From Lentisphaerota bacterium (GTDB lineage Bacteria > Verrucomicrobiota > Lentisphaeria > Victivallales > Victivallaceae), in NCBI GenBank assembly GCA_024225035.1, contig JAAEMX010000211.1:22658-86657 (forward strand): DNA of 64,000 nucleotides. The letters run 5' to 3'. Positions 2,261 to 47,859 of this stretch are shown in pieces; the first letter of the stretch is position 1, and each line of letters begins with the position of its first letter. Below the pieces are notes generated by a model. It worked only from the letters and a program-made list of their open reading frames with translations, searched no databases and was not told the DNA's origin. Made by a program: the position numbers and the translations under genes.

Positions 2261-2332
2261 TTTGCAGTCCGAGCCTCATAATTATTATTAACAATAAAAT
2301 ATAATATTGCTCGCCTGTGTAATAAAGCAAAT

Positions 2333-2366
2333 AAAAAAAACACTGCTTAAGAAAGCAGTGTTTTAT
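2333..2366 (-). terminator. rho-independent terminator downstream of the NifX/MinD cluster (minus strand)
   Basis: Inverted repeat aaaacactgctt/aagcagtgtttt with a 4-nt loop. An A8 run on the plus strand gives a U8 tail in the minus-strand transcript. Confidence 0.6.
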
Positions 2367-2395: not shown

Positions 2396-2743
2396 TTAGT
2401 GGGAACAGGCATTTTCTCCTGTACTCAAACTTTCGTTTAAAAAAGCTTCAACAATTTTCTTAGGAGCTTCAGCAGGAGCTCCGGTAACAACTTTGATCCC
2501 CGCATCATTTAATAACTGCTGAGCACGCATTCCCATGCCTCCGGCAATAACTAAATTAACACCGTTTTCATTTAGCCAGCGAGGTAAAACTCCAGGCTCG
2601 TGAGGTGGTGGTGTTTGAAATTCGCTATTAGTTATAGTTTGATTTTCATCCACTTCGATAAAGTTAAACTCTTGACAATGTCCGAAGTGCATACACAGGA
2701 CTCCATTTGCTACAGGTAAAGCTAATTTCATTTTTGTCTCCAT
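2396..2743 (-). CDS. NifX/NifB-type dinitrogenase FeMo-cofactor-binding domain protein
   Basis: About 115 aa with the typical NifX-NifB fold motifs (LALPVANGVL..HFGHCQEF, VNLVIAGGMGMRAQQLL..GIKVV). Confidence 0.8.
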   Translation of the reverse strand: METKMKLALPVANGVLCMHFGHCQEFNFIEVDENQTITNSEFQTPPPHEPGVLPRWLNENGVNLVIAGGMGMRAQQLLNDAGIKVVTGAPAEAPKKIVEAFLNESLSTGENACSH

Positions 2744-2752
2744 TTTTATTAA

Positions 2753-3049
2753 TTAAATTTCAAATACTTCTTGTATTTTATTACTTATTTCAATGACTGC
2801 GTCACGGACAGGGCAGTGGGCCGATTCGATCAGGTTGCAGCTGTTAGTTATTGCTACTCCAACATCTTCATCAAAAGGGACTTCACCAATTACCGGCACA
2901 TTAAGAACTTTACATTTTTCTTTTATTGTTTCCGTTTCTTTCAGGTTAATATCGTATTTATTGATGACCACTCCTGCGTTGATGCCAAAGTGTTTTGTCA
3001 GCTTTAAAGCCCTAAGCATATCATGAGTACCTGACAAGCTCAGTAACAA
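2753..3049 (-). CDS. C-terminal fragment of a MinD/CooC-like ATPase, separated from its N-terminal part by a frameshift near 3041
   Basis: The HFGINAGVVINKYD..PVIGEVPFDE segment aligns to the C-terminus (HMDIPTGIVINRSG..IPILSKI) of the intact paralogue at 3787-4554. The ORF begins with TTG and sits in a different frame from 3021-3749. Confidence 0.5.
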   Translation of the reverse strand: MLLSLSGTHDMLRALKLTKHFGINAGVVINKYDINLKETETIKEKCKVLNVPVIGEVPFDEDVGVAITNSCNLIESAHCPVRDAVIEISNKIQEVFEI

Positions 3050-3749
3050 TTAAGGCTACTCGACAGCCTGTAACTGATGCAATAACAGGACAGCCTGTTC
3101 CGGGAGGTCCATCGCCAATGACTTTAGACACGTGTTCAGTTATGGCCATGTTTAATGCCTGATTTCTGACTTGTGTCACCAACTTGCCTGAATTTTCCTC
3201 TCCAATGTTCAGAAATGCGTGTGCCAACTTTCCATATTTGCTTTCGGCAGTATAAACAAAACCGGTATTTCCGGGATTCATTTTTATTGCATCATATGGA
3301 CACACCAGTTTGCAAAGACCGCAGCCTTCACAGGCGCTTTCAATTACTTCGAAATAGCCGTTTGAACCAAGTTTTATGGCTCCAAATCGGCAAAGGGAAG
3401 CACTTTTTCCACATTTTATACATTTATCCTTTACTATCTCAGCCTTAGCGCCGGAAGTAAAAAGTCTTGAAGTAAGCGGTTCGCTTTTTAAAAGAATTGG
3501 TAAATTTGAAGCATCAACATCTGCATCAAAAAATACTGAACCGGGACGCATAGCGGCAAGGGCTGCAGTTAAAGTTGTCTTACCAGTCCCCCCTTTCCCG
3601 CTTATTATAACAATCTCATTTTTGACTTTGTGCTCATTAACGCTTACCGGTGTTGAAATGTAATCGACTTTTTCTAATTTGCCCGAAATAAATTTTGACT
3701 TTTGTCCTGATTCTTTCAAATCAATAATTTTATCAGCAAGCTCTTTCAT
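3021..3749 (-). CDS. MinD/ParA-family P-loop ATPase with inserted 2x[4Fe-4S] ferredoxin domain (N-terminal part; frameshifted gene)
   Basis: Walker A motif ISGKGGTGKTT, then CIKCGKSASLC..CEGCGLCKLVCP ferredoxin motifs, then DGPPGTGCPV. Start reassigned to Met (MKELADK) at 3749 to avoid overlapping the upstream paralogue. The reading frame stops where the paralogue continues. Confidence 0.7.
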   Translation of the reverse strand: MKELADKIIDLKESGQKSKFISGKLEKVDYISTPVSVNEHKVKNEIVIISGKGGTGKTTLTAALAAMRPGSVFFDADVDASNLPILLKSEPLTSRLFTSGAKAEIVKDKCIKCGKSASLCRFGAIKLGSNGYFEVIESACEGCGLCKLVCPYDAIKMNPGNTGFVYTAESKYGKLAHAFLNIGEENSGKLVTQVRNQALNMAITEHVSKVIGDGPPGTGCPVIASVTGCRVALIVTELVRYS

Positions 3750-3786
3750 TACACCAGCTATTTCCGGGTGAGCTTCAGCAAGAAAA

Positions 3787-4554
3787 TCACCTTTTGAATA
3801 GCTTACAGCGTATTTTTGACAGAATTGGAATGTTTGCCTCTGCAGCAAAATCTTCAATGATTTTATCATTTTTACCGGAACGGTTGATTACAATTCCAGT
3901 CGGGATATCCATGTGAGAACTGAGTTGTGCTGCGAGTTTCAAGTCATTCAATCCGAACGGTGTGGGTTCTGTAACCAGCAAGGTGATACTTGCATTAGTC
4001 AGTGTTTCACGTACGGCGCAACCGCACCCCGGTGAAGCATCGAGAATGTTAATGTGATTATCATTCAGCTCTTTTCGAAGATCCTTGATTATATCAGGTG
4101 CTTGTACTTGCCCAATATCAAGTTCACCCCATGAAAGTTTGAATGGTAAACCTACATTGACCTTATGGATTGAACCAATGCGGACATCATGACTGTTTAT
4201 GGCTTTTTGCGGGCAGACATATGAGCAAGCGCCACAAGCATGACACATTTCTTCAAAAACCAACGGTTTGCCACCAATAACAGTTACAGCATTATAGTTG
4301 CAAACTTTGGCGCATTTTCCGCAACCATCGCAACCATCGCTGTTGAATTTTGGTTTTGGTAGACAAACTGGGGTATTTGAAGCCAGCCTCGTATCCAGAA
4401 AGAGGTGATCATTGGGAGCTTCGACATCACAGTCTACTAAATGAACTTTTCGATCATTATTTTGACTCAAAGTCCAAGCTAAATTAACGGCCACAGTTGT
4501 TTTACCAGTACCGCCTTTTCCACTTGCAATACAGATTTGCATGACTACATCCAA
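3787..4554 (-). CDS. MinD/ParA-family P-loop ATPase with inserted 2x[4Fe-4S] ferredoxin domain (intact)
   Basis: Walker A motif IASGKGGTGKTT, then CDGCGKCAKVC and CHACGACSYVCP motifs, and a MinD-type C-terminus. This is the classic partner of NifX-like proteins in anaerobes. Confidence 0.85.
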   Translation of the reverse strand: MDVVMQICIASGKGGTGKTTVAVNLAWTLSQNNDRKVHLVDCDVEAPNDHLFLDTRLASNTPVCLPKPKFNSDGCDGCGKCAKVCNYNAVTVIGGKPLVFEEMCHACGACSYVCPQKAINSHDVRIGSIHKVNVGLPFKLSWGELDIGQVQAPDIIKDLRKELNDNHINILDASPGCGCAVRETLTNASITLLVTEPTPFGLNDLKLAAQLSSHMDIPTGIVINRSGKNDKIIEDFAAEANIPILSKIRCKLFKR

Positions 4555-4907
4555 TGTCCTTCAACGTTAGGAACTTCAGCAGAAGTAAGAGCTCCCTGTT
4601 CGAATTTTTTAACAAGATCCTGTATCGTACCTTCCACGCCGCAAATGACTTGTATGCCAGCTGCTTTGAGTGTGCGGAATGCCTTAGGACCGCAATGTCC
4701 GCAAAGCACACAATCTGCCCCCATATTAACTACGTGAGTTGCAGCTTGAATTCCTGCCCCCTGAGCCGCATTCAGGTTTTGAGAATTATCAGTGTAAGAG
4801 GTTTCATTTGTTTCTGTATTGTAAACTAAAAAACCGGGGCAACGGCCAAAACGTTGATCAAGAGAGCTGCTAAGAGTTTTTCCCGCAGCGGCGAATGCTA
4901 ATTTCAT
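4545..4907 (-). CDS. NifX/NifB-type FeMo-cofactor-binding domain protein
   Basis: About 120 aa with NifX-NifB fold motifs (LAFAAAGKTL..RFGRCPGFLVY, MGADCVLCGHCGPKAF..GIQV). Confidence 0.8.
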   Translation of the reverse strand: MKLAFAAAGKTLSSSLDQRFGRCPGFLVYNTETNETSYTDNSQNLNAAQGAGIQAATHVVNMGADCVLCGHCGPKAFRTLKAAGIQVICGVEGTIQDLVKKFEQGALTSAEVPNVEGHWM

Positions 4908-4924
4908 TATTATACCTGTGTGAT

Positions 4925-5161
4925 TTAATTGTTAGAAAAGCCGTTTCTAAATCCACCTCTGAAGCCGGCGCCACGCCCTCTGCGCATACCTTGACAGCAA
5001 CCTCTACCAAACCCTCGTCGTCGACCAAAGCCGAAACCTGCATTATTAGCATTCTCCCCTGTCTGGTTATTCTGCGGTTGAATTTGATTACGACAAGGCC
5101 CCATTCCACGACCAGTGAAGGCGCCTTGTCCCAGCGGTCCAGTTCCATCCATACCAGGCAT
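4925..5161 (-). CDS. DUF5320-family Gly/Arg-rich protein
   Basis: The N-terminus MPGMDGTGPLGQGAFTGRGMGPC matches the DUF5320 signature (MPrgDGTGPmGmGPmTGRG), followed by GFGRGRG repeats. Preferred over the overlapping alternative-frame ORF 4870-5148. Confidence 0.55.
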   Translation of the reverse strand: MPGMDGTGPLGQGAFTGRGMGPCRNQIQPQNNQTGENANNAGFGFGRRRGFGRGCCQGMRRGRGAGFRGGFRNGFSNN

Positions 5162-5220
5162 GATACTCTCCCACGTTATTTGGTTTTAAAATATTATGCA
5201 GTTATAAGCTGCATCTAAAA

Positions 5221-5691
5221 TCAATTGTTTTCTCTGCCGCGACCGTTGCCGCGTCTCTTTCGTCCTCTAAAGAAAAATTCTTCTTTAAAGGCATCATCAG
5301 GAATTTCCTGCTCAGAGCTTTTACATTCAGGACAGTTGGTTTGTTCCTGTTTAGTTTTGCGCCATACTAATCCGCAATTTCCGCACCTTTGCATTGAGTC
5401 AGAATAGCTAATCCCGGTTGACACAATGCGTAGAGCTTTACCATTAACAAGGGCATCTGCTATTTTCTGTCTTGCCCTCTTTATTATGTTGCCAAAAGTT
5501 TGACGTGATACGTTCATTTTCTCTGCTGCGTCATTTTGGTAGAGGTTTTCTACATCAGCCAGCCGTATTGCTTCAAGCTCATCAATTGTCAATTCAACTT
5601 CTGAAAGCATTGACATTGGCACACTGCGCGGTTTGTAATAATCCGCCTTAAAACAGCCACCAATTTTGCGATTTTTAAAAGGTCTTGGCAT
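5221..5691 (-). CDS. DUF134 (UPF0251) family predicted DNA-binding protein
   Basis: Starts MPRPFKNRK..YYKP, followed by a sigma-70 region-4-like HTH (LTIDELEAIRLADVENLYQNDAAEKMNVSRQTF) and a C-terminal CxxC..CxxC Zn-ribbon. It is the first gene of the nif-like cluster. Confidence 0.7.
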   Translation of the reverse strand: MPRPFKNRKIGGCFKADYYKPRSVPMSMLSEVELTIDELEAIRLADVENLYQNDAAEKMNVSRQTFGNIIKRARQKIADALVNGKALRIVSTGISYSDSMQRCGNCGLVWRKTKQEQTNCPECKSSEQEIPDDAFKEEFFFRGRKRRGNGRGRENN

Positions 5692-5727
5692 AAATTAAAA
5701 TCTTTTTATTATTGGCATATGCTATTT

Positions 5728-5755
5728 ATTATAGTGAAAAAAAATGCCATTGCAA
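5728..5755 (-). promoter_or_regulatory. putative sigma-70 promoter for the DUF134 / NifX / MinD cluster
   Basis: On the minus strand, TTGCAA is followed after 16 nt by TATAAT, about 35 nt upstream of the DUF134 start codon. Confidence 0.4.
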
Positions 5756-11284: not shown

Positions 11285-12175
11285 GTGATGAATCATAATT
11301 ACCCGGTATTTACTGTAGCAAATGAATGTCAGGACTGTTGCAAATGTGTCCGTCATTGTCCATCCAAAGCTATCAGAGTTGTAGATGGCAGGGCCAGTGT
11401 AATGCCGGAATTGTGTGTCGCTTGTGGCCTTTGTGTCAAAATCTGTCCTGCTGGCGCTAAGCGCATTCGTGATGATTTGTCCAGAGCGAACTATTTACTT
11501 AATGAAAAAGAGAGAGTGTTTCTTTCATTGGCCCCAAGTTGGAAAAGTTATTTTAAGGGGCTTAAATGCGAGCAGTTAGTAAGTGCTGTGAAAAAGCTAG
11601 GCTTTGCAGGGGTGAGCGAGACCGCTCTAGGAGCTGAGCTAGTGAGCGCTGTTTCCGGCCAGATACTTAACAGGAATAACCCCGGATTATACATCTCTTC
11701 GGCCTGTCCGGCTGCTGTTGATTTTATCCGTAAGTATTTGCCTGAATGTACTGCCGCAATCACTCCGGTATTGTCACCACTTTTGACGCATGCCAAAATG
11801 CTGCGTCAGCACTATGGTGATGATATTGGAGTGGTCTTTGCAGGGCCCTGCGCCGCAAAAAAACAGGAAGCTGATCGTTATCCAGAGCTGGCTAATGTAG
11901 CATTAACTTTTGAAGATATAGAACACTGGTTTATCAGAGAGAGAGTTTTCCCACACAGGGAAAGAGGGAAGGCTAGGTTCGTACCATACTCTGCCGTGGA
12001 GGGTAGAGTGTATCCGCTGGAAGGCGGCATGATTGAAACCTTACGCGAGCGAGACCGGGATGACAGTAAGTATTTTATTACTGTCACTGGTCTCAGCAAT
12101 ATTGAACGGACTTTAAGTTGTGCGGTTTCTGATTATAATGATATGCAAGCCTGGCTTGTGAAGGCGGTTGTGTAA
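11285..12175 (+). CDS. sensory-type (HydS-like, group C) [FeFe]-hydrogenase homolog, N-terminal part (gene interrupted by a frameshift near 12140-12150)
   Basis: Two 4Fe-4S motifs (CQDCCKCVRHCP, CVACGLCVKICP), then H-domain motifs SSACPAA (L1, with the first Cys of TSCCP replaced) and GPCAAKKQE (L2). The L3 motif continues in another frame. Confidence 0.7.
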   Translation: MMNHNYPVFTVANECQDCCKCVRHCPSKAIRVVDGRASVMPELCVACGLCVKICPAGAKRIRDDLSRANYLLNEKERVFLSLAPSWKSYFKGLKCEQLVSAVKKLGFAGVSETALGAELVSAVSGQILNRNNPGLYISSACPAAVDFIRKYLPECTAAITPVLSPLLTHAKMLRQHYGDDIGVVFAGPCAAKKQEADRYPELANVALTFEDIEHWFIRERVFPHRERGKARFVPYSAVEGRVYPLEGGMIETLRERDRDDSKYFITVTGLSNIERTLSCAVSDYNDMQAWLVKAVV

Positions 12176-13020
12176 ATGGTCCCGGCATGAGAGATACTGG
12201 CGGAACCATTGCTGATTTAGTTGCAACTTGTAGTGATGCTGCACGTGAAAGCAGCTTAAAGCGTGTTGTTGATATCGATTTAAAAGAGAGTTTGAAGCCT
12301 GAAAAAATTTATTATAAGAAACTTAGCGAGGGAAAAGTTAATAACGCTTTGGACTCGGTTGGCAAAGTGTCCGTAGAGGATGAATTGAATTGCGGCGGGT
12401 GTGGTTATGGAACCTGCAGAGATTTTGCGAGAGCTATGCTTGAGGGTAAAGCGGAGGCCGCTATGTGCCTGTCATATCTAAGAAAACTGGCTCAGCGTAA
12501 GAGTAATGCTTTAATTAAATATATTCCTGCCGGCGTGGTTATTGCTGACAGAAACTTAAATATCATAGAGTGCAACCAGAATTTTAGTCGACTTTTTGAT
12601 GAAAGCACCAGATTGGCATTTGAGGCTGTGCCGGGATTGAGTGGAGTTAATTTAAAGAAAATTGTTGATTTTTATGATCTTTTTGAGGCTGCATTGGCTT
12701 CCGGGAAAGACGTGTGCCGTGATAATTACCTAAGTGGTGACCACATCCTGAATATCAGTGTTTTTACAATAGAAAAACATCGCACTATAGGAGCAATTGT
12801 TCAGGATGTGACACAGGCGGAAATACATCGTGAACATATTTCAGAAATGGCACAGGAGGTTATCCGCAAAAACGTGAACACTATTCAGAAAATGGCCAAA
12901 TATCTGGGTGAACACATGGCAGATACAGAAATACTGCTGCGTGAAGTCGCCAGCGGATACAAATCTAACACTAAACGCAGGGAGCTTGGCAATGATTTTA
13001 CTGGAAGAGACATTCATTGA
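12142..13020 (+). CDS. sensory [FeFe]-hydrogenase homolog, C-terminal part: H-cluster L3 motif, extra 4-Cys cluster and PAS domain
   Basis: This frame is open from 12142 and encodes KLACEGGCVNG (L3). It continues to CGGCGYGTC-x16-C (a Cx2Cx4Cx16C motif) and a PAS-like fold (IPAGVVIADRNLNIIECNQNF...). Confidence 0.65.
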   Translation, partial: YASLACEGGCVNGPGMRDTGGTIADLVATCSDAARESSLKRVVDIDLKESLKPEKIYYKKLSEGKVNNALDSVGKVSVEDELNCGGCGYGTCRDFARAMLEGKAEAAMCLSYLRKLAQRKSNALIKYIPAGVVIADRNLNIIECNQNFSRLFDESTRLAFEAVPGLSGVNLKKIVDFYDLFEAALASGKDVCRDNYLSGDHILNISVFTIEKHRTIGAIVQDVTQAEIHREHISEMAQEVIRKNVNTIQKMAKYLGEHMADTEILLREVASGYKSNTKRRELGNDFTGRDIH

Positions 13021-14176
13021 AATAGAGTGCTGCCAGCGCATCAAAACCGGCGAGTCTGTTTGTGGTGATGATTTTAGAAGTATCAGGCTGGATGATGAAA
13101 GCCGTTGCATCTCGGTATTATCAGATGGTTTAGGCAGCGGAATAAAGGATTCATTGATGGCCAGTATGACAACGTCAATGGTGCTGCGGTTTGTTTCCCG
13201 GGATATGGAGATAATCCCATCTGCTGAAATAATAATGGATACCTTGCCGGTTTGTGAGGTTAGAAAGATAAGTTATGCCACTTTTACTGTTGCCGATATA
13301 CTGGCAAATGACCGCGTCAGGATTATTGAAATGGATAACCCGCCTTATATACACTTGCGGGACGGTGAAGATGTTCAATGGGAAAAACAAACTGTTTTCT
13401 CTGCTGCATGGCCTGACCGCAAACTTAATTTATCAAAGTTTAAAGCTGTTCCGGGAGATAGAATTATATTCTTTTCTGATGGTGTAACCCAGGCAGGGCT
13501 CGGACATTCAATTGCCAAGTTTGGCTGGAAAAGGCAAGGATGTCTGGAGTTTGTGCAGAATATTATCAAACGTGAACCGAACATTTCGGCTCGTGATTTG
13601 TCACATTCTATTGTAGCACAAGCTTGTACAAAGAACCCTGGGTTTTCGTGTATTGACGATATTTCATGCACTGTAATATATTTTCGTAAGCCAAGGCACA
13701 TCCGACTGTTAACAGGGCCTCCTTTCAGAAATGATAAGGATCGTGACTTTGCCAAAACTGTTCTCGATTTTAATGGCAGGTCTGTGATTTGCGGTGGAAC
13801 AACTGCAGGAATAGTTGGCAGAGAGCTAAACCGTGAAGTAAGAACAGACCTCAGATTGCGGGGAGGGGGATTGCCACCAATATCTACAATGAAAGGTATT
13901 GACTTGGTTACTGAAGGCATTCTTACATTGACCGAAACAGACAGACAGCTTGAGTTGGATAACAGACAACAATCTGCTCCCTTAGCAGCAGCAAAGTTGA
14001 TTGAGTTGTTACAGGAAAGTGATGTTATCGAATTCATCGCAGGTACTAGAGTCAACGAAGCTCATCAGGATCCCAGCCTGCCTGTTGATTTGGAAATCAG
14101 GCGTAACATAATCAAGCGGCTCAAGACTGTGTTGGAAAATAAGTACATGAAAAAAGTAACTATCAAGTATTATTAA
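12992..14176 (+). CDS. PP2C/SpoIIE-family serine phosphatase
   Basis: SpoIIE-type motifs GESVCGDDF and LSDGLGSGIKDSLMAS, then FFSDGV. Start taken at MILLEETF, which overlaps the hydrogenase 3' end by about 29 nt. Confidence 0.7.
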   Translation: MILLEETFIEIECCQRIKTGESVCGDDFRSIRLDDESRCISVLSDGLGSGIKDSLMASMTTSMVLRFVSRDMEIIPSAEIIMDTLPVCEVRKISYATFTVADILANDRVRIIEMDNPPYIHLRDGEDVQWEKQTVFSAAWPDRKLNLSKFKAVPGDRIIFFSDGVTQAGLGHSIAKFGWKRQGCLEFVQNIIKREPNISARDLSHSIVAQACTKNPGFSCIDDISCTVIYFRKPRHIRLLTGPPFRNDKDRDFAKTVLDFNGRSVICGGTTAGIVGRELNREVRTDLRLRGGGLPPISTMKGIDLVTEGILTLTETDRQLELDNRQQSAPLAAAKLIELLQESDVIEFIAGTRVNEAHQDPSLPVDLEIRRNIIKRLKTVLENKYMKKVTIKYY

Positions 14177-14467: not shown

Positions 14468-15919
14468 GTGATGATAATGAAAGTAGCCAATAACGCTGAA
14501 AGAATCAGGCGTGAGCTGCTGATAAGAATAATCCGCAACTTTATGCGTGGAACCCTTAAGGATGTTATTGACCGTATTGCGGTTGATATGCGTCCTCGCA
14601 AGGAAAGGCCTTCACGCTGTTGTGTTTATAAAGACAGAGCCGTTCTTAAATATAGAGTTATGGCAATGCTTGGGTTTGGTATTGAAGATGAAATAGATGA
14701 AGCAAAGGCATTGAGCAAATATCTGAAAGAGGCTACAGAACGACAAGCCCCGGACGATAATATATTGAGTGTATTAGACGTGGCATGTTCAGCATGTGTT
14801 GAAAGTCAGTACTTAGTAACTAATGCATGTCGTGGTTGTTTTGCCCGACCATGTACCTTCAATTGTCCTCGTGATGCAATTCAAGTTGTTGACGGGCAGG
14901 CACGGATTGACCATAGTTTGTGCATTGACTGTGGTAAATGTACAAAAGTCTGCCCATATCATGCAATTATACGAGTGCCAATTCCATGTGAAGAAGCATG
15001 TCCGGTAAACGCTATTAAGAAACGTTCTGACGGAACGCAGGTGATTAACTTTAAAAGCTGCATTTCCTGCGGTAAATGCATGCAGGCGTGTCCTTTTGGA
15101 GCAATTCTGGAGCGTTCCCAGATTATTGATGTACTTAACGCAATTAAAAAAGGTAAAAAAGTCGTGGCAATGGTCGCACCCTCTATTGTCGGTCAGTTTC
15201 CTGGAAAACTCGCGCAGATAGCTGAAGCCGTCAAGCTGGTTGGGTTTGAGCTTATGGAAGAAGTTGCTCATGGAGCTCAAATGACCACTGAGCACGAGAC
15301 TAAAGAGTTTTTTGAACATATGGAGCAGGGAGACCACATTATGACTTCTTCGTGCTGCCCGGCTTATGTTGAGACCGTCAAAAAACATGTACCTCTTTTG
15401 CAGCCATATGTTTCTGATACTCCGAGCCCAATGCGTTTTACTGCCAGAGTCGTTAAAGAGAAATATGGATGTGACTGTGTTAGTGTGTTTATCGGGCCCT
15501 GTGTTGCAAAGCGCAAGGAAGCGCAAAGGTCTCCAAAAGTTGACTACGTATTAACATTTGAAGAACTAGGTTCTTTCTTTGCGGCCATGAATATCGATGT
15601 TGCGTCTCTGAAAGGAATTAAACTTCCGAGAAAAGTAGAAGGTTACGCACGTGGATTTGCCAGTAGTTGCGGGGTGACCTCTGCAATGCTGAAAGAGTCT
15701 ACCAAGACTGTGGCAGACAGCAACTTGGATAATGACGCGAAGTTTATAAACGGACTTGACCAAAAAACAGTTAAACAACTTCATCTTTACGGTAAAGGCA
15801 AACTCCCGGGCAATTTCCTCGAAGTAATGGCTTGCGAAGGAGGCTGTGTTGGAGGTCCTTGCGTGCTGGGTGATGTTAAGCTTGCTACTCGCGCGGTAAA
15901 AGCATCAACGGAAGAATAA
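14468..15919 (+). CDS. [FeFe]-hydrogenase catalytic subunit (monomeric, Fe-S-rich N-terminus; group B-like)
   Basis: All three intact H-cluster motifs are present: TSSCCPAY (L1), GPCVAKRKE (L2) and MACEGGCVGGPC (L3). Two 4Fe-4S ferredoxin motifs and extra N-terminal Cys clusters are also present. Confidence 0.85.
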   Translation: MMIMKVANNAERIRRELLIRIIRNFMRGTLKDVIDRIAVDMRPRKERPSRCCVYKDRAVLKYRVMAMLGFGIEDEIDEAKALSKYLKEATERQAPDDNILSVLDVACSACVESQYLVTNACRGCFARPCTFNCPRDAIQVVDGQARIDHSLCIDCGKCTKVCPYHAIIRVPIPCEEACPVNAIKKRSDGTQVINFKSCISCGKCMQACPFGAILERSQIIDVLNAIKKGKKVVAMVAPSIVGQFPGKLAQIAEAVKLVGFELMEEVAHGAQMTTEHETKEFFEHMEQGDHIMTSSCCPAYVETVKKHVPLLQPYVSDTPSPMRFTARVVKEKYGCDCVSVFIGPCVAKRKEAQRSPKVDYVLTFEELGSFFAAMNIDVASLKGIKLPRKVEGYARGFASSCGVTSAMLKESTKTVADSNLDNDAKFINGLDQKTVKQLHLYGKGKLPGNFLEVMACEGGCVGGPCVLGDVKLATRAVKASTEE

Positions 15920-39247: not shown

Positions 39248-39781
39248 TTATCTTTGGTAAAGATCATTTCCTTCTGAATCTATAGCGACAATCAAAGGCA
39301 TATTTTCAACTTCAAGTCGATGTATGGCTTCAGGACCGAGATCATCATAACAAACAACCTCACATGACTTAATGCAACGCGCAATTAAGGCAGCAGCACC
39401 GCCTGTTGCAGCAAAATATACACAACCATACTTTTTCATGGTGTCAATCACCTCAGGACTGCGTCCGCCTTTTCCAATCATCGCCCGTAATCCAGTGCTG
39501 GCTATAACAGTTGGAGAATAGGCATCCATGCGATAACTGGTAGTAGGGCCGGCACTGCCAATTGGTTGCCCTGGCTTTGCGGGGCATGGGCCGACAAAAT
39601 ATATTGTCTGACCATTGAGATCTACTGGCAGCTCTTTACCTGCTTCTATAAGGTCACATAAGCGTTTATGAGCAGCATCACGACCAGTGTATATAACGCC
39701 AGAAAGCAAAACTTGATCGCCTGCTTTCAATTTTCTTACGGTATTTTCGTCAAATGGGGTACTTAAACTAACTAAACTCAT
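39248..39781 (-). CDS. class I (Fe-S) fumarate/tartrate hydro-lyase, beta subunit (C-terminal-domain type); mesaconase candidate
   Basis: TtdB/FumA-C motifs (GPCPAKPGQPIGSAGPTTSYRMD, VYFAATGGAAALIA). Last gene of the glutamate mutase operon. Confidence 0.85.
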   Translation of the reverse strand: MSLVSLSTPFDENTVRKLKAGDQVLLSGVIYTGRDAAHKRLCDLIEAGKELPVDLNGQTIYFVGPCPAKPGQPIGSAGPTTSYRMDAYSPTVIASTGLRAMIGKGGRSPEVIDTMKKYGCVYFAATGGAAALIARCIKSCEVVCYDDLGPEAIHRLEVENMPLIVAIDSEGNDLYQR

Positions 39782-39790
39782 TGCGTTTCC

Positions 39791-40696
39791 TCAAATCTCA
39801 AATCCGGCATGCCTTGCTGCATGACAGTTAAGGTTAACGGCTACAGGCAGAGAAGCTATATGACATGGGAATTTCTCTATATGGACAGCCAGAGCCGTAG
39901 TATCACCGCCCAGTCCTTGAGGCCCAACGCCGGAAGCATTGATTTTCTTTAGAATTTCCTGTTCAAGCTCAGCGTATTCTTTTTCATCATGAGGCTGACC
40001 AACTTCTCTAAGCAAAGACTTTTTCGCTAAAAAAGCAGCCTTTTCAAATGTTCCGCCAATTCCTACGCCCACAATTGTAGGCGGACACGGGTTGCCGCCA
40101 GCGCCGGTAACAGTCTGTACAACAAAATCAATTATGCCTTCTTTACCATCTGATGGTTTCAGCATTTTAAGTTGACTCATATTTTCTGAACCACCGCCCT
40201 TAGGAGCTAGTACAACACTAATTTTATCGCCGGGAACGAGTTTCAGATGGATAATTGGCGGAGTATTATCTCCCGTATTCTCACGGTTAAAAATCGGGTC
40301 TTTTACGATTGACTTACGGAGATACCCTTCTTTATAACCTTTACCTGTTCCTTCGGTAATAGCTTCATAAATTGTGCCGCCATCAACTTTCACCAATTCT
40401 CCCATTTCTACAAAGAAAACAGCAAACCCTGTATCTTGACATATAGGCATACGCTCAGTTGAAGCAATTTCCGCATTCTCCAAGTACTGCCGCAAAAATT
40501 CTTTTGCACGCACCGAGTTTTCAGAATTGAGATATTCCTTTAGCTTATTAAGAACATCCTGAGGTAGGTCGTAAGCTGCCTTCATGCAGCAAGCAGCAAC
40601 TTCATTGACAATTCTGTCGTACGGAACATGCCTGAGCATATCCTTGAGGCTTTTATTCTTCGCTATTTTTAAGACTCCCATGACCTGATTCACCAA
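39791..40696 (-). CDS. class I (Fe-S) fumarate/tartrate hydro-lyase, alpha subunit; mesaconase candidate
   Basis: TtdA/FumA-N fold with the CQDTG motif and Cys ligands. Confidence 0.85.
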   Translation of the reverse strand: MVNQVMGVLKIAKNKSLKDMLRHVPYDRIVNEVAACCMKAAYDLPQDVLNKLKEYLNSENSVRAKEFLRQYLENAEIASTERMPICQDTGFAVFFVEMGELVKVDGGTIYEAITEGTGKGYKEGYLRKSIVKDPIFNRENTGDNTPPIIHLKLVPGDKISVVLAPKGGGSENMSQLKMLKPSDGKEGIIDFVVQTVTGAGGNPCPPTIVGVGIGGTFEKAAFLAKKSLLREVGQPHDEKEYAELEQEILKKINASGVGPQGLGGDTTALAVHIEKFPCHIASLPVAVNLNCHAARHAGFEI

Positions 40697-41990: not shown

Positions 41991-43352
41991 TTATAGCTCA
42001 TGAATTTCAGTTTTAAACACGTCATTCTCGTCAATCTCCAACAAATGGTAAATAGAGAACTTGTAGACATCTCCAGCGCTGATATCAGATGGAGAGAACG
42101 GGAACGCCAGATTTCCGGCAGTTGCAATGCGCCCGGGATATCCGTAATGCAGCAATGTTGAACGAACAATACTGCAGATAGCATCAGCATCATTCTGGCT
42201 GTCAGCCAGAGTTTCAATCAGTACGCAAACTTCAAGTGATTCCATTTTTTCAGGCTCAAGGTCGGCCATTACGCCATTTTTACCATAAACATGGAAGAAA
42301 ATTTCACCTTTTACACCCTCAGATTCAAGCATGGAAGAGGTGTTTTCTTTGACAGTTTCAAGGATTGAATCAATCTGCCTGATCATAATCGGATCACGAG
42401 TACCGGCTATAGATATTGTTCTGCAGCCGACCTTTTCAGTTCCCTCGAGTTTCACTGTTGGGTTTTCTTCAGGAATGAATTTGGTGCCGGATACTTTAAT
42501 TCTTCCTTCAGGAAGCTCTTCAAATTTAACTTCGCTCAGATCAAGCATTCCACCTGGTCCAGGCAGTAAATATGGGTCTGATTTTTCATATAATGAATGA
42601 GCTGCAGTAGAGTTTTTAGTGAATTCTCTAATTGGATTAAGAGGAACTAATTCAAAATAGTCATCATGCAGAATGCCCATAACACAGTCGCAGCCTGACC
42701 CCGGACTTGCCGCTATAGCTGCGCATTCAAGAATTTTGCCCATGTGCAGAGCCAGAGCCGGATCAAAACCTAACGAAATCGGCTTTGCTGCAAAGGCTGT
42801 AGGATCGTACGCTCTCCCCGCAAGGACGACCTGGCAACCTTGATCAAAGGCATTTTTAATAGGACCAATTCCCATCTGAGCTACGATATTAGTAGCTTTG
42901 TCTACGGTTGCATCGTCAAGCTCTGGTAGTCCGCCTAGGGGTCTGGTTTTACCTGCTTTTATTGCAGTCTTGATTATTTCTTTATCAACATCTGCATAAA
43001 TAACGCCCATAGTGAACGCTAAATTATCTTCTTCTGCAATTTCTTCTGCAATCTCACGACACCAGTCAACATGAGGCTTGGCTCCGCATCCGCCAGCTGA
43101 CCCGATGACGGCAGGAATGTCAAGGTTATATGCAGCTTTCAGGATGTACCTTAAGTCACGTTTTACTCCGTCACGATTGGTAAAGGATTTACCTGAACCA
43201 AGGTAGTACGGGCCTGGGTCAACCGAACCAGCATCGATAGCAATCATATCTGGCTGCATCTCGATTCCGCGATTGAAAGATTCTTCCGGGAATCCATAGC
43301 CTAAGATTCCACTGGGTGAAAGGACTTTGAATTCTGTTTGAGGGATGTTCAT
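41991..43352 (-). CDS. DUF1446 (AtuA-like) family protein
   Basis: 453 aa. N-terminal GILGYGFPEESF and AIDAGSVDPGPYYLG motifs resemble the AtuA/DUF1446 family. The start overlaps the mal stop by 4 nt. Confidence 0.6.
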   Translation of the reverse strand: MNIPQTEFKVLSPSGILGYGFPEESFNRGIEMQPDMIAIDAGSVDPGPYYLGSGKSFTNRDGVKRDLRYILKAAYNLDIPAVIGSAGGCGAKPHVDWCREIAEEIAEEDNLAFTMGVIYADVDKEIIKTAIKAGKTRPLGGLPELDDATVDKATNIVAQMGIGPIKNAFDQGCQVVLAGRAYDPTAFAAKPISLGFDPALALHMGKILECAAIAASPGSGCDCVMGILHDDYFELVPLNPIREFTKNSTAAHSLYEKSDPYLLPGPGGMLDLSEVKFEELPEGRIKVSGTKFIPEENPTVKLEGTEKVGCRTISIAGTRDPIMIRQIDSILETVKENTSSMLESEGVKGEIFFHVYGKNGVMADLEPEKMESLEVCVLIETLADSQNDADAICSIVRSTLLHYGYPGRIATAGNLAFPFSPSDISAGDVYKFSIYHLLEIDENDVFKTEIHEL

Positions 43353-44602
43353 TCTTCTTCTCCGTATTTTGAGCGAAGCAGCGCAATGGAACGCTGCATT
43401 TCATTATTGGTGATCATGTAGCCTTCGTCAAAACCCATTCCCGGCTTGGCGAGAATGCGGGCAGGGCGGGTTGCCAGCGCCGCCTGGGTACAGCATCTGG
43501 CAGAAACGTCAGTTTCGTTACAAGTGCCGCCTTGATAAGCTTCCATGTCGTTTCTCTGACAGTAAAGAACAGCCTTGACAGTATTGTGAATGCTGCCAAG
43601 ATCCGGGGTTTTTATCTGAACCATATGGCAGCACTTAGTATCAGTGAAGTCAACAATGTCCTCATAAGTGTTGCACCATTCATCAGCGACAATCTTAGTA
43701 GCCGCTCCCATACGTTCCATTTCTTCTTTGATTTTACCGAGCATTTCGATTTGAGGTTCTTTGGCTTCCATGTCAACAGGACCTTCAATATATAAAGGCA
43801 GGCCTTTTGTCAATTTGCCAAGGTCAGTCAGGTATTGAGCAATTTTTACAGGATCATTATCAAAAATCGGTCCCAGGTTGCCATATACATCAATATGGAT
43901 AGCAGGACGGTAATCCCCGTCAGGGCCTAATTCGAAAATTCTATTAGTCAGCCATTCAATATATTCAGCAAGCTTTTCGCCGTTGAGCCCAAGCTTGGTT
44001 TCTATATGATTGATAAGTGCGTGTGGCAACACATCAACACCCTTAATAATCATTTTATCTGAAGCATTGTAGCGATCGTCACCACTCTGACCAAAAATTG
44101 GAATTTTTTCAGCTATTACAGGCAGTGAAAACTCTTCGCACAACACTTCGCACATTAATTTGCCTTCGCTTTTGGCCTTAGCGTCAAGCAAAGCCTGACT
44201 CAAACCATAGCGTAAAGCTGTATGTAATGGTTTTCCATCAATCTTCAGCTGATCAATATAAGCAGCAGTTTCGCGGAAACTGTCGATACTCAAGCCTAGT
44301 AAAATAGGACTGATATGTTCTTCCATGAAAGGAATATAAGTTTCAGCAAGGAGCAAGGGATCACGGCCGCCAGCTCCACTGTACTGTACAGCAGCAGCAT
44401 CGCCAACGCCTACCTGACCATTTTCCATTTCAAGCATGATTGAGATTGACTCTCCTGACTGCCTGATAGCGGTAAAGCCTTCTGTTACCGGATCACCTAC
44501 ATAGGTAAATCCATCATGGCCTGCGCCCTGTTTGATTGCACGTTGATCATCGAAGAAAAAACCGGTTTTACCTGCAGAATATGTTATATTTTTTATTTTC
44601 AT
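43349..44602 (-). CDS. mal: methylaspartate ammonia-lyase (beta-methylaspartase)
   Basis: N-terminus MKIKNITYSAGKTGFFFDDQRAIKQGAGHDGFTY closely matches the MAL N-terminus; enolase-superfamily length (417 aa). Confidence 0.9.
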   Translation of the reverse strand: MKIKNITYSAGKTGFFFDDQRAIKQGAGHDGFTYVGDPVTEGFTAIRQSGESISIMLEMENGQVGVGDAAAVQYSGAGGRDPLLLAETYIPFMEEHISPILLGLSIDSFRETAAYIDQLKIDGKPLHTALRYGLSQALLDAKAKSEGKLMCEVLCEEFSLPVIAEKIPIFGQSGDDRYNASDKMIIKGVDVLPHALINHIETKLGLNGEKLAEYIEWLTNRIFELGPDGDYRPAIHIDVYGNLGPIFDNDPVKIAQYLTDLGKLTKGLPLYIEGPVDMEAKEPQIEMLGKIKEEMERMGAATKIVADEWCNTYEDIVDFTDTKCCHMVQIKTPDLGSIHNTVKAVLYCQRNDMEAYQGGTCNETDVSARCCTQAALATRPARILAKPGMGFDEGYMITNNEMQRSIALLRSKYGEEE

Positions 44603-46044
44603 CGTGGCCTCCCGACTAGTCTGCCTTTACTTATTGAATAAATATCATCAATTACCATTTGAAAACTTGCTTCACGTTTTTCAATGTCTGCTCTTTTCTG
44701 GATCAATTCTTTATGAATTTTTCGGATATCTTCAGGAATTGGAACTTTGCCGAAATCCAAAATACGAATTGCTCCATGATTGTCGCGAACCGGCATCATT
44801 TTGCCTGGGTTGGCAAGAGAAGGAGCAAATGGGATATCTATAACTCCGGCCTGAAATGCTCTTACAGCTCCCTCTGCAATATTACCGTTTCCAAGCTGTA
44901 AAGTAGCATCCATCAAAGCACGAGTTTCACGTTTAATAAGTTCAACTTCCCAGAGCATCTGTTTGGTTTCAGGAACTTCCTGATCAGCCAGCATGTTAAC
45001 AATCTGCCGAGTGCATTTCAGCCCTTCGAGATTGGCTTCTTTGGTAGGAATACCAAATGCTTCATGCGGAGTTTTTACGATAACTTTTGTCGCTTTTGCA
45101 AGTGCCGCAGCAGTTCCGCCCCAGGTTATCACAGAAAATGCTTTAGCCTGGTCTTCAGGGAAACCTCCCATCCATTGATGCAGAACAGTACTTAACTCGT
45201 AATCATTGTATCCAGCTTTCTGGAAATATTCATCTGCTAATTCACGCAAGGCCATCATAGCAGCGATATCCTGAATCATATTGCCGGCCTGACCATAACC
45301 GAGAGTGATCGACCTTACTCCCTGTTCAAGTGCCATTAGACCTTCCAGTATAGCAACTGTATGGCTGGCAAACGGCGGCACCAGAGTGCCGGAAAGAGGG
45401 CCAAAAGGTTCACGGTTTATTCTTACGCCTTGCTCCTCAAAATATCCAACGAGTCGGTCAATGTACTGCCAGCAGGAAATGGAATGCTCCAAAGTAACTT
45501 TTTTAGCATAAGGAATATTATAAGAGATACCGCCCCCCTCATATGAGGTAAAGCCGGCTGCAAATGAAATTTCCGCCAGCAAACGTGCATCTGGAGTTCC
45601 ATGTCTGATTTCTACAGGTTTACTAAGGCTTTCGACTAATCGACGGCATTCTGCTATGCCGTGGTTAACAGCAGGGAATCCATTTAATAAAGATTGGCCT
45701 GCAGCCTTTGACTTTTCGATGCCGCGTTGAGCTTCGTTATATTGATTGAGTCGTGTGTATGCGTCGATAGTTGTGGGGAGCAGGTCGCATTCAGGCTCTA
45801 GAAATTTCAGCAATTGAATATGCTCTTCAACCAATGCTACTCCTGCACGAGGTTGTAAGAGAACCTGTTTGGCCTGGTCCGCTTCATGCATCTTTTTCGC
45901 AAAGTTCATACTGTCGGGTAAGCCGCGCTGGTATTGAACCGCGTCTTCGAGGTCAACGTCCTGACCTGTCGGCCAGGTTTGCAAAGCGCCTTCGCGCATT
46001 TGCATGAATTCGCTTTCGGGAATTTTCCCTTGGTAAAGCTTCAT
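44599..46044 (-). CDS. glmE: glutamate mutase (methylaspartate mutase) E/epsilon subunit
   Basis: 481 aa TIM-barrel subunit with a characteristic N-terminus, in operon order S-L-E-mal. Confidence 0.9.
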   Translation of the reverse strand: MKLYQGKIPESEFMQMREGALQTWPTGQDVDLEDAVQYQRGLPDSMNFAKKMHEADQAKQVLLQPRAGVALVEEHIQLLKFLEPECDLLPTTIDAYTRLNQYNEAQRGIEKSKAAGQSLLNGFPAVNHGIAECRRLVESLSKPVEIRHGTPDARLLAEISFAAGFTSYEGGGISYNIPYAKKVTLEHSISCWQYIDRLVGYFEEQGVRINREPFGPLSGTLVPPFASHTVAILEGLMALEQGVRSITLGYGQAGNMIQDIAAMMALRELADEYFQKAGYNDYELSTVLHQWMGGFPEDQAKAFSVITWGGTAAALAKATKVIVKTPHEAFGIPTKEANLEGLKCTRQIVNMLADQEVPETKQMLWEVELIKRETRALMDATLQLGNGNIAEGAVRAFQAGVIDIPFAPSLANPGKMMPVRDNHGAIRILDFGKVPIPEDIRKIHKELIQKRADIEKREASFQMVIDDIYSISKGRLVGRPR

Positions 46045-47435
46045 TTTGATATCTCCCTCAAGGCAATTTTGTTTAAAGCTGTAGCTGCTGCGGCTTTTGG
46101 AGCTATACGAGCTGTATTAGCTAAAAGCGGCAGCAAATATTCATGGTCAGCGAAGAACTCAGGGTTTTCCGGTAACAGTATCTCCTCTTCCGGATTAACA
46201 GATGTGGCACCTGCAAAAGTATCCTTCAGAATTTCATTACCAGCCTGAGCAAGAAAACCGCCGGTTCCGATTATAGTCTGGATCCGCTGCAGGTTTTTTC
46301 CTGTTTGAACAGAAGTCGGCCCTACAATTGTGTAAACGGTTCTTCTTCGCCCGGAGTGTCTGACTGCCGCAGTTCTCAAACAGACAGCTGCAAGCAGTTT
46401 TTCCAGTTTTTTTTCAGTGTCATTTTTGGGCAGGTATGAAGGCTCTTCTTTAAATTTAAAAAGAAAAGCATCCAGTTCATCTCTGCTAAGTGAGTTTTCC
46501 TCCAGCTTAAATTCTACAAATCTTGCATCTGACGCAATTGCAGCATCGGCACAAATACGCATCCCAACGTCACCTTCTACCGTACGTTTTATATCCGGTT
46601 CAGGAAGACCTCTGGTTATTACGCTATCCGAATCAAGCTCACGCCTGGTACGAGAATAAAAATCTGTCGTTGCACCACCCATATCGATAATACAAAACTC
46701 GCGTGGTGATTTAGAGTAATCAGCCAGCACTTTGACAAATTCAAGCATGGAGTAGGGGGTCGGTACTGGAGTTTGTCCAGTACGCTCCATTAATTCATCA
46801 AGCCCTTTACCGGTGACAATCTGCTTGAGAAATATTTCTCTTATTTTTGATTGTGCCGGTACTGGATTGGGACAGTTAAGCTCCGGCAGTACATTTTCAA
46901 TTATGTGCAATTGATGCTTAGCAAGCAACTCTCTGGCTTGCTTATGCAGACTGCGGTTAGCTGCAAATATGATCGGGATATTCTTGGAAATATCTTTTAT
47001 CATATGCAGATTATGCCCGACAATTATCTCATTGCCGCCGTCAGTTCCGCCGGTAAAAAGAATAATATCAGGACGTTGATTATTAATGAGAGTTATATCT
47101 TCGTCTGTAAGTTTGTAGGCAAAAACAGATTGGATTTTGCCGCCTGCGGAACAGGCGGCCTCCTTTGCCATTTTAAGCGTTAGTTCCGGCACAACACCAA
47201 TAGCTGCTATAGCCAGGCCGCCTTTGGCAGAAGAAGAATAAACCAAACTGCAGTTTCCCGGTATCTCTTCACTGCCGAACAGATCAAGACAACACGAAGA
47301 AAAGCCATCAGCAAGATGACTTGTTGTTGTCGGAACGCAGGTTCTGCTTATAAGTTCAAGGCTTTCATCATAATATCTGAATAAAGCCCCTTTCGTAAAA
47401 GTGGAACCAATATCAATACTGACTATTTTGTCCAT
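46041..47435 (-). CDS. glmL: glutamate mutase accessory/chaperone protein GlmL (MutL)
   Basis: ASKHA-fold N-terminus MDKIVSIDIGSTFTKGALF; located between the S and E subunits. Confidence 0.8.
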   Translation of the reverse strand: MDKIVSIDIGSTFTKGALFRYYDESLELISRTCVPTTTSHLADGFSSCCLDLFGSEEIPGNCSLVYSSSAKGGLAIAAIGVVPELTLKMAKEAACSAGGKIQSVFAYKLTDEDITLINNQRPDIILFTGGTDGGNEIIVGHNLHMIKDISKNIPIIFAANRSLHKQARELLAKHQLHIIENVLPELNCPNPVPAQSKIREIFLKQIVTGKGLDELMERTGQTPVPTPYSMLEFVKVLADYSKSPREFCIIDMGGATTDFYSRTRRELDSDSVITRGLPEPDIKRTVEGDVGMRICADAAIASDARFVEFKLEENSLSRDELDAFLFKFKEEPSYLPKNDTEKKLEKLLAAVCLRTAAVRHSGRRRTVYTIVGPTSVQTGKNLQRIQTIIGTGGFLAQAGNEILKDTFAGATSVNPEEEILLPENPEFFADHEYLLPLLANTARIAPKAAAATALNKIALREISK

Positions 47436-47859
47436 CTTCAGCCCTGCGACCCAAAATATCTTGTTTCAGAAAATTTATACAATCTTCAAGAGGGGTATCC
47501 GGAGTAAAAACTCTGTCATATCCCATACTCTTGAACTTAGTTACAATTTCTTCGTTTGGAGTTTTTCCGACAACCAGGTTGCCGCCGACATATAGAATTA
47601 CGTTTTCAAGGCCGCGTTCGACACAGCGTTCGCGAAAACCCTGGCAGTCTATTTCGCCATGCCCGTAAAGGGAGGAGACTATAATTGCTTCTGCCCCGGT
47701 TTCTATTGCAGCATCTATGTATTCATCTTGACTTACCATTACGCCAAGGTTCACAACATTGAATCCTGCTTCGCTGAAAACTCTTTCGAGAATTTTATTT
47801 CCAACAGCGTGACAGTCAGCACCTATCACACCCAAAACCATGGTTGCATGTTCCATCAT
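47413..47859 (-). CDS. glmS: glutamate mutase S/sigma subunit (B12-binding)
   Basis: B12-binding DxHxxG motif (GADCHAVGNKIL) in a 148-aa protein. Confidence 0.85.
   Translation of the reverse strand: MMEHATMVLGVIGADCHAVGNKILERVFSEAGFNVVNLGVMVSQDEYIDAAIETGAEAIIVSSLYGHGEIDCQGFRERCVERGLENVILYVGGNLVVGKTPNEEIVTKFKSMGYDRVFTPDTPLEDCINFLKQDILGRRAEDGQNSQY

Follow-up and report, generated by a model that had tools for sequence, protein, structure and literature searches.

A probable Lentisphaerota version of the anaerobe-specific Orp operon, with a DUF134 gene and a disrupted, fused ATPase gene

Organization of the locus

Positions 2396-5691 of the DNA analysed here, a stretch of 64,000 nucleotides (nt) on contig JAAEMX010000211.1 of a Lentisphaerota bacterium (hereafter the window), are the exact span of a set of minus-strand open reading frames (ORFs) that an earlier note on this DNA had described as an orphan cluster resembling nitrogenase cofactor genes. 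In our analysis the locus is probably the Lentisphaerota version of the anaerobe-specific Orp operon, for which we propose a cluster-trafficking mechanism, control by a DUF134 protein and a broken ATPase gene. The earlier note held that this architecture had not been characterised experimentally, but the Orp cluster type has already been partly studied in Desulfovibrio vulgaris, D. gigas and D. alaskensis (PMC6345978, PMC8359166). The window locus is a new member of a recognised, poorly understood system and not a new nitrogenase-like pathway. Its features, from promoter to terminator, are:

5728..5755, minus strand: sigma-70-like promoter, TTGCAA at 5755..5750, 16-nt spacer, TATAAT at 5733..5728, a 10/12 match
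5713..5724, minus strand: palindrome TAGCATATGCCA, 4 nt downstream of the -10 box, candidate DUF134 operator
5221..5691, minus strand: DUF134 (UPF0251) helix-turn-helix protein, 156 amino acids (aa), Pfam PF02001, E 3e-20
4925..5161, minus strand: DUF5320 protein, 78 aa, rich in Gly, Arg and Phe, cationic, Pfam PF17253, E 1.9e-9
4545..4907, minus strand: NifXa, an ORP/Orp8-like single-domain Nitro_FeMo-Co protein, 120 aa, PF02579, E 1.2e-23
2753..4542, minus strand: fused Orp3-Orp4-like gene, disrupted, made of two P-loop halves of MinD type that each contain a ferredoxin insert of the 2x[4Fe-4S] type
4554..3787 (255 aa), 3869..3021 (282 aa) and 3049..2753 (98 aa), minus strand: overlapping ORF fragments of the ATPase gene, in three frames
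3819..3820, minus strand: frameshift site 1, a 17-nt deletion relative to the closest relative, codons for RIPFxR lost, +1 shift
3034..3035, minus strand: frameshift site 2, a 5-nt deletion relative to the closest relative, P-T of VTEPT lost, +1 shift
2396..2743, minus strand: NifXb, a stand-alone homologue of the MrpORP/Orp9 Di-Nase domain, 115 aa, Pfam Nitro_FeMo-Co, E 1.5e-19
2327..2364, minus strand: intrinsic terminator with a 12-bp stem, a 4-nt loop and a T-run

The closest relative is the corresponding locus of Lentisphaerota bacterium zth2 (CP071032.1; L001). The locus had been described as six co-directional genes running from promoter to terminator; the strand, the families and both signals stand, but the number of genes was ancestrally five, one of them broken in the window sequence, because the three ATPase ORFs are a single ORF in L001. 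Pfam searches of the cluster ORFs recovered DUF134, DUF5320, two Nitro_FeMo-Co domains and CbiA/ParA P-loops with a Fer4 dicluster, so that the DUF134, DUF5320, NifX-type and MinD-type assignments made earlier are correct. The gaps between genes within the set measure 2-59 nt. The promoter-like TTGCAA-16-TATAAT at 5755..5728 lies 37 nt upstream of the first ATG, and over about 50 nt around it the window and L001 are almost 100% identical, against only about 72% for coding DNA. The terminator hairpin (2364..2337) lies 32 nt past the stop codon of NifXb, whose start is probably at 2731, giving a protein of 111 aa. A further hairpin at 5196..5214 on the minus strand, with a 6-bp stem (ATGCAG...CTGCAT) followed by an A/T-rich stretch, stands between the DUF134 and DUF5320 genes and could be a partial terminator or attenuator splitting the regulator from the structural genes.

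The two NifX-fold proteins

NifXa is a single-domain Nitro_FeMo-Co protein of the ORP/Orp8 type. Its best match in the PDB is the ORP of D. gigas (2WFB; E 1.1e-19, 40% identity over 114 aa), followed by TM1290 and MTH1175, while its match to true NifX (9IAN) is marginal (E 0.0024 against 1e-19 for ORP) and does not place it in the NifX/NafY clade. The crystal structure 2WFB concerns a protein that holds a Mo-Cu-S cluster, [S2MoS2CuS2MoS2]3-, non-covalently. NifXb found no NifX at E <= 0.01 in the PDB search and instead matches positions 263-365 of the NCBIfam model for MrpORP (NF041136; E 2e-39, 135.9 bits against a cutoff of 450). Its CMHFGHCQE, TPPPHEPGVLP and C-terminal CSH are the three motifs published for MrpORP's Di-Nase domain (CxHFGHC, TPPPHxPGxxP and C-x-H), a domain that binds [3Fe-4S] (PMC6345978). 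Orp9 is a fusion of an Mrp/NBP35 P-loop to this domain; NifXb is the Di-Nase part only, and Pfam found no Mrp-type gene in the cluster or among the scanned ORFs of the window.

In related clusters the Mrp component is modular. The full MrpORP fusion occurs at L077:9676-10926 and L072:10978-12240, with scores of 543 and 538 bits that both exceed the equivalog cutoff of 450. At L002:10183-11031 the Mrp P-loop is a separate gene adjoining a Di-Nase gene of the NifXb type, and at L053:10997-12295 a NifU-like domain is fused to an Mrp P-loop.

A fused ATPase gene

The earlier note had seen two P-loop ATPases, each with a double 4Fe-4S ferredoxin domain. The domains are confirmed by Pfam, but the two intact genes are not: what had looked like two ATPases is a single gene, ancestrally fused and about 600 aa long, of the kind found in relatives from the Planctomycetes-Verrucomicrobia-Chlamydiae (PVC) group, and the same DNA in L001 is a single ORF of 607 aa. 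When the frame-corrected ATPase was searched against a collection of 5.8 billion proteins, at least 120 fused homologues of about 600 aa were found, from Lentisphaerota, Victivallales, Kiritimatiellia, Planctomycetota and others, the best of them 69% identical.

Both halves have a deviant Walker A motif (GKGGTGKTT), an invariant Cys in a PGxGC loop and the Fer4 dicluster insert. Each is about 290 aa long, which matches the 31 kDa reported for Orp4. Orp3 and Orp4 are paralogues with two [4Fe-4S] ferredoxin motifs each that co-purify with Orp8, and in vitro all three receive Fe-S clusters from MrpORP (PMC6345978). The window gene encodes the same pair of paralogous P-loop ATPases, here fused and frameshifted and with one Cys replaced by Ser, so that 15 of the 16 ferredoxin-type Cys are present. 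The replaced residue is the third Cys of the first ferredoxin motif in the second half (CIKCGKSASLC, window 3402..3404, minus strand). It is Ser in L001 as well and Cys in 118 of the 120 fused homologues; to judge by these sequences, the lineage of the window and L001 may have a three-Cys cluster, either Ser-ligated or [3Fe-4S].

The model of an intact orthologue (P0001) forms one compact body (pLDDT 90.2, pTM 0.90) of the SIMIBI MinD/NifH/ApbC fold class. Its nearest solved folds are archaeal MinD, FlhG/FleN, McdA, NifH, ApbC, Cfd1, BchL and ATPase-type HypB, and the ferredoxin insert is absent from all of them. The fusion supports the Orp3-Orp4 heterodimer inferred from co-purification, and the window locus shows the Orp system, widespread in anaerobes, in the PVC group with its ATPases covalently joined.

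Conservation of the gene neighbourhood

The earlier note had proposed to look for conservation of the neighbourhood across anaerobe genomes. Among 80 related loci retrieved through the first ATPase half of the window (1.01 Mb together), the NifX-ATPase-ATPase-NifX core recurs across many phyla, an arrangement far beyond chance. A NifXa-type gene is found in 71 of the loci and a NifXb-type gene in 57; the ATPases are separate and adjacent in 66 and fused in 11. Sixteen loci also encode PAS-sigma54 activators with the architecture of OrpR. The placement of the window locus in the Orp cluster family follows from the match of NifXa to ORP and of NifXb to MrpORP, from the agreement of the ATPase with the published description of Orp3 and Orp4, and from the MrpORP and OrpR-like genes of these related loci.

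Other genes recur around the core, namely those for metallo-beta-lactamase-fold proteins (22 loci), radical SAM proteins (20), a third Nitro_FeMo-Co paralogue (18), PadR (17), FeS_assembly_P (10) and a CGGC-domain protein (9); examples of neighbour genes are L006:5385-6215, L079:11852-12802, L067:5323-5718, L067:10488-10949 and L051:3400-3699. None of these six kinds of gene is present in the window cluster. The recurrent Mrp, NifU-Mrp fusion, FeS_assembly_P, radical SAM, CGGC and third Nitro_FeMo-Co neighbours support metallocluster chemistry over a MinD-like positioning role.

Disruption of the ATPase gene

In a global alignment of 1.8 kb of DNA the ATPase gene of the window is collinear with that of L001 at about 72% identity, and the only indels are the two gaps listed above. 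The 282-aa ORF holds the missing C-terminus of the first ATPase, the linker and the N-terminal two-thirds of the second, and the 98-aa ORF is the last third. The deletions fall on conserved positions. The only columns gapped in the window that are filled in at least 90% of the 120 homologues are six at site 1 and two at site 2; the residues lost include P (120/120), I (119/120) and F (116/120) at site 1, and P (120/120) and T (103/120) at site 2. As written, the operon would therefore be unable to make the ATPase, and the gene would be a recent pseudogene unless the assembly is wrong. Programmed +1 frameshifting and transcriptional slippage were considered and ruled out, since invariant residues are deleted and repair of the frame would not restore the protein; site 1 has only A5.

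The three ATPase segments are 77, 67 and 62% identical to L001 and have accumulated no internal stops. For comparison, the neighbouring genes are 75-85% identical, except for the low-complexity DUF5320. Because the segments still resemble L001 and are free of stops, we suggest that the disruption is either a recent event or an assembly fault. The second of these, in which the locus is intact in the organism, both frameshifts are artefacts of sequencing or assembly and a functional fused Orp3-4 ATPase is made, is possible but the less likely of the two explanations. The stop-free segments and the intact small genes that flank them are consistent with it, as are at least two further split genes in the window, an FGGY kinase broken at A7 and a sensory hydrogenase-like gene broken near 12140. 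On the other hand, the lesions in the ATPase gene are multi-nucleotide (17 and 5 nt) and not homopolymer slips, they remove residues invariant in the 120 homologues, and two lesions in one 1.8-kb gene fit decay following a first inactivation. If the deletions are real, the organism is losing the ATPase while retaining the carrier genes, and the ATPase would be dispensable there.

A look-up of the exact NifXa protein matched only a 619-bp contig (L081; GCA_024449895.1, JAANSX011408357.1) that is 100% identical to window positions 4398..5016 and misses both frameshift sites. The contig number implies an assembly of more than 1.4 million contigs, and the window organism may be an associate or contaminant of the JAANSX sample. 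Exact-protein look-ups for NifXb, the DUF134 protein and the EI24 neighbour gave no match, and scanning metagenomes with the middle ATPase segment brought up no relatives.

Transcriptional control and the DUF134 protein

The first gene of the operon encodes a member of the DUF134 family, with a PF02001 score of 73.1 bits against a gathering cutoff of 27. The protein is 76.5% identical to its L001 orthologue, falls below the cutoff of the NCBIfam model PRK04217, and shows weak Pfam matches to sigma-70 region 4 and helix-turn-helix families in addition to PF02001; its C-terminus has a zinc-ribbon-like CxxC...CxxC segment and an Arg/Gly tail. It is the probable regulator of the operon. Of 23 loci that carry the gene, 15 have a palindrome centred on CATATG at 19-59 nt ahead of the DUF134 start (L001-L005, L048, L027, L062, L019, L016, L022, L065, L076, L040 and L071), for which a naive binomial test, uncorrected for phylogeny, gives P ~7e-21. 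These loci cover Lentisphaerota, Verrucomicrobiota, Acidobacteriota and other phyla; the palindrome stands shortly after the -10 box of operons that begin with DUF134, and it takes the forms TGGCATATGCCA, GAGCATATGCTC/GTTC and GAACATATGCTC. The pattern RRCATATGYY has 21 sites in the 1.01 Mb of related loci, 13 of them inside the 80-nt stretches upstream of DUF134 genes. From this distribution the palindrome is a strong candidate for the operator of DUF134 acting as an autoregulated repressor. Transcription would start at the sigma-70-type promoter and would probably be repressed by DUF134 through the palindrome, which overlaps the transcription start.

In D. vulgaris Hildenborough (DvH) the orp operons use sigma54 promoters. 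A conserved TGGCAT-N5-TTCAC in the window was considered as such a promoter and rejected by eye, since the -12 GC element is missing from it and there is no activator gene either: Pfam found no Sigma54_activat domain in the scanned ORFs of the window. Scans of the whole window with Rfam (at gathering thresholds) and for tRNAs gave no matches; from the lack of an Rfam match we conclude that the operon is not under riboswitch control. In place of sigma54 and OrpR it has a sigma-70-type promoter and a DUF134 gene. Literature searches on DUF134, DUF5320, COG1149 and Orp3/4, outside the Marseille and Lisbon papers, returned nothing relevant, and the conserved candidate operator makes DUF134, a domain of unknown function, directly testable.

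A proposed mechanism of cluster trafficking

The idea of a metallocluster carrier and ATPase set, put forward in the earlier note, is sound in general. We propose that the two ATPase halves would form an ATP-closed pseudo-heterodimer, as SIMIBI dimers do, that low-potential electrons would reach them through the [4Fe-4S] inserts, and that the pseudo-heterodimer would dock the small NifX-fold proteins. The ORP-like NifXa could hold an inorganic metal-sulfide cluster non-covalently, with the DUF5320 tail as counter-charge; alternatively, NifXb could hold the cluster through Cys and His ligands. The ATPase-NifX complex would then load, reduce or hand on the cluster, a form of metallocluster trafficking distinct from the maturation of nitrogenase or hydrogenase.

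Several points weigh against an Orp operon working in this way. The Mrp/NBP35 P-loop of Orp9 and control by OrpR and sigma54 are absent from the window locus. The comparison with DVU2103, 2104, 2105 and 2107 goes no further than their published description, and the binding of DUF134 to the palindrome is drawn from comparison of loci. The pseudo-heterodimer geometry is taken only from the pTM of 0.90. Sequence quality is in doubt because at least two other genes of the window are frameshifted as well, so that the ATPase may be intact in the organism. Finally, for Orp in Desulfovibrio itself the literature proposes a link to cell division.

DUF5320 and iron-sulfide storage

The DUF5320 protein, too, scores as a member of its family (39 bits for PF17253 against a gathering cutoff of 27). 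It is of low complexity, with 22 G, 11 R, 7 F and 3 C in 78 aa, and 63% identical to its L001 counterpart. In 28 of the 80 related loci a DUF5320 gene lies directly upstream of NifXa, and in at least four relatives DUF5320 is fused to the C-terminus of the NifXa homologue:

L049:6999-7589: NifXa-DUF5320 fusion
L030:3735-4343: NifXa-DUF5320 fusion
L010:7146-7802: NifXa-DUF5320 fusion
L012:11540-12325: NifXa-DUF5320 fusion
L057:247-840: NifXa-DUF5320 fusion with a PF17253 score near the threshold

The first four score 27.4-43.8 bits with PF17253, and the extensions in the fused relatives have GRGMG repeats and, after these, a coiled-coil-like end. This layout recalls IssA of Pyrococcus furiosus, a thioferrate-binding Fe-S storage protein in which an IPR003731 domain carries a cationic tail rich in Gly and aromatic residues; its authors also describe an uncharacterised, non-thermophilic clade with Gly-rich tails, 'IssX' (PMC5524996). 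By analogy the window may encode an IssA-like domain-plus-tail as two polypeptides, which we regard as a lead. In its fullest form this would be a storage system, in which NifXa, with the DUF5320 tail in trans, stores an anionic polymer of iron sulfide or thiometallate that the ATPase can mobilise. We think this unlikely. The fusions, the adjacency of the two genes and the Gly-, Arg- and Phe-rich composition speak for it, but the nearest relative of NifXa is ORP, whose ligand is a discrete Mo-Cu-S cluster, Orp9 has no IssA-type tail according to the authors of the MrpORP study, and the likeness to IssA is compositional and as such weak evidence.

Combining these leads, one might picture, beyond the Desulfobacterota, a DUF134 repressor acting on TGGCATATGCCA / GAGCATATGCTC, a split IssA-like protein made of DUF5320 and an ORP-like protein that together hold an anionic metal-sulfide cluster or polymer, and a fused Orp3-4 that loads or mobilises the cluster; such a module for running Orp operons would be a hitherto undescribed one. 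As a whole this picture is speculative and rather doubtful; if true, it would give first functions to two widespread domains of unknown function and join the Orp and IssA systems. The fusion of DUF5320 to ORP-like proteins already makes this second domain of unknown function directly testable.

Cell division, nitrogenase and hydrogenases

A role for Orp in positioning was proposed for Desulfovibrio on phenotypic grounds, and the Orp ATPases could accordingly be MinD-like spatial regulators with a part in septum placement or in some other aspect of cell division, an idea first put forward for D. vulgaris. The best structural matches of the ATPase are indeed MinD, FlhG and FleN. Its scores are far under the cutoffs of the MinD models (80.4 bits against 212.9 for TIGR01968 and 130.4 against 201.75 for TIGR01969), neither minC nor minE is among the neighbour families that recur in at least 6 of the 80 loci, and metal-cluster chemistry is indicated by its ferredoxin inserts, by its partners of the NifX fold and by the neighbouring Mrp, NifU and FeS_assembly_P genes. 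The cell-division role is improbable for the window locus.

The lack of nifHDK, nifEN and nifB within the 64 kb, reported in the earlier note, is upheld. Pfam scans of 50 further ORFs across the window found no nitrogenase component, NifB, sigma54 activator or Mrp, and no Oxidored_nitro, Fer4_NifH-grade or NifB match. Azotobacter vinelandii NifH, a query validated against the PDB (632 bits), gave no tblastn match in the window or in the 1.01 Mb of related loci. An orphan nitrogenase module was set aside, the NifX-fold proteins grouping with ORP and MrpORP and not with NifX. The suggestion that the set serves the hydrogenases 6 kb away finds no support, because no hydrogenase co-occurs in the 80 loci, unrelated genes intervene and the hydrogenase genes are on the other strand. 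These genes lie about 5-6 kb from the cluster, past five unrelated genes on either strand (two CNNM/CBS, one without a Pfam hit, RDD and Sir2). Maturation of [FeFe] hydrogenase needs HydE, HydF and HydG, and none of these was seen in the window. An orphan scaffold, carrier and insertase set of FeMo-cofactor type that serves other enzymes, specifically the nearby hydrogenases, is thus very improbable: the Nitro_FeMo-Co domains and NifH-class ATPase folds are present, as are, at 11.0-15.9 kb, an [FeFe] hydrogenase (TIGR04105, 517 bits) and another gene that resembles a sensory hydrogenase, but the affinities of the NifX-fold proteins are with ORP, TM1290, MTH1175 and MrpORP's Di-Nase domain and not with NifX 9IAN, and in none of the 80 related loci do the +/-8 kb around the cluster contain a hydrogenase or NifH.

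Other features of the window

The sensory-type [FeFe]-hydrogenase-like gene (11285..13020, plus strand) is split at a junction near 12135-12150. Its Fe_hyd_lg_C match ends at profile position 222/245, and the ACEGGCVNGPGM motif continues in another frame, running into an ORF with a PF04060 FeS domain. It is followed by a SpoIIE phosphatase ORF (12908..14176) with an overlap of 113 nt, and a group B [FeFe] hydrogenase is encoded beside the two at 14468..15919. The sensory hydrogenase-like gene and the SpoIIE ORF look like a hydrogen-sensing module of the HydS/Hfs type. A second kind of frameshift splits an FGGY-family sugar kinase (62378..63891, minus strand) into two overlapping ORFs at an A7 homopolymer, with the junction near 63395-63405; the ORFs match positions 1-155 and 157-245 of the FGGY_N profile. 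A methylaspartate-pathway cluster for glutamate fermentation (41991..47859, minus strand) encodes a B12-binding MutS subunit, MutL, MutE, methylaspartate ammonia-lyase and an AtuA-like protein, and is accompanied by class I fumarase genes at 39248..40696.

Comparison with known systems

The system closest to the window locus is that of D. vulgaris Hildenborough, where the genes are arranged as orp3-orp4-orp5 / orpR / orp7-orp8-orp9 (DVU2103-2109). Orp clusters are described in the literature as anaerobe-specific, possibly of archaeal origin, with OrpR restricted to Deltaproteobacteria. By most of the features compared, the window locus goes with these clusters. Both loci are tightly clustered in anaerobic hosts, and they share a single-domain Nitro_FeMo-Co protein that resembles ORP, paired ATPases of MinD type with two-[4Fe-4S] ferredoxin motifs and an MrpORP-type Di-Nase domain with its CxHFGHC, TPPPHxPGxxP and C-x-H motifs. 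They differ in that the window ATPases are fused in one, disrupted gene whereas Orp3 and Orp4 of Desulfovibrio are separate, in that the window has the Di-Nase part of Orp9 alone, without the Mrp P-loop, and in that Ser takes the place of the third Cys in one ferredoxin motif. The window locus also lacks the divergent operons, the sigma54 promoter and OrpR, and has a sigma-70-like promoter, DUF134 and DUF5320 instead.

IssA resembles the window locus in combining a NifX-fold domain with a cationic, disordered segment rich in Gly, Arg and aromatic residues, a combination that is fused in some relatives of the window locus. In the window a gene of its own, upstream of that for NifXa, encodes the tail-like DUF5320, the likeness is one of architecture and composition, and NifXa scores higher with ORP (73.7 bits) than with MTH1175 (52.2 bits). 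The NifX, NafY and NifB-C carriers share with the window proteins the PF02579 domain and the general role of holding complex metal-sulfur clusters, but the window is without nifHDK, nifEN and nifB, the match to true NifX is marginal (E 0.0024) and the neighbourhood is different. The ATPase, finally, has the fold of the SIMIBI metal ATPases (NifH, CooC, Mrp/NBP35/ApbC and ATPase-type HypB) and of MinD, with the Walker A motif GKGGxGK[ST] and a PGxGC Cys in each half; it differs from them in the two-cluster ferredoxin domain inserted into each half, an arrangement without a solved structure so far, and in the covalent fusion of the dimer.

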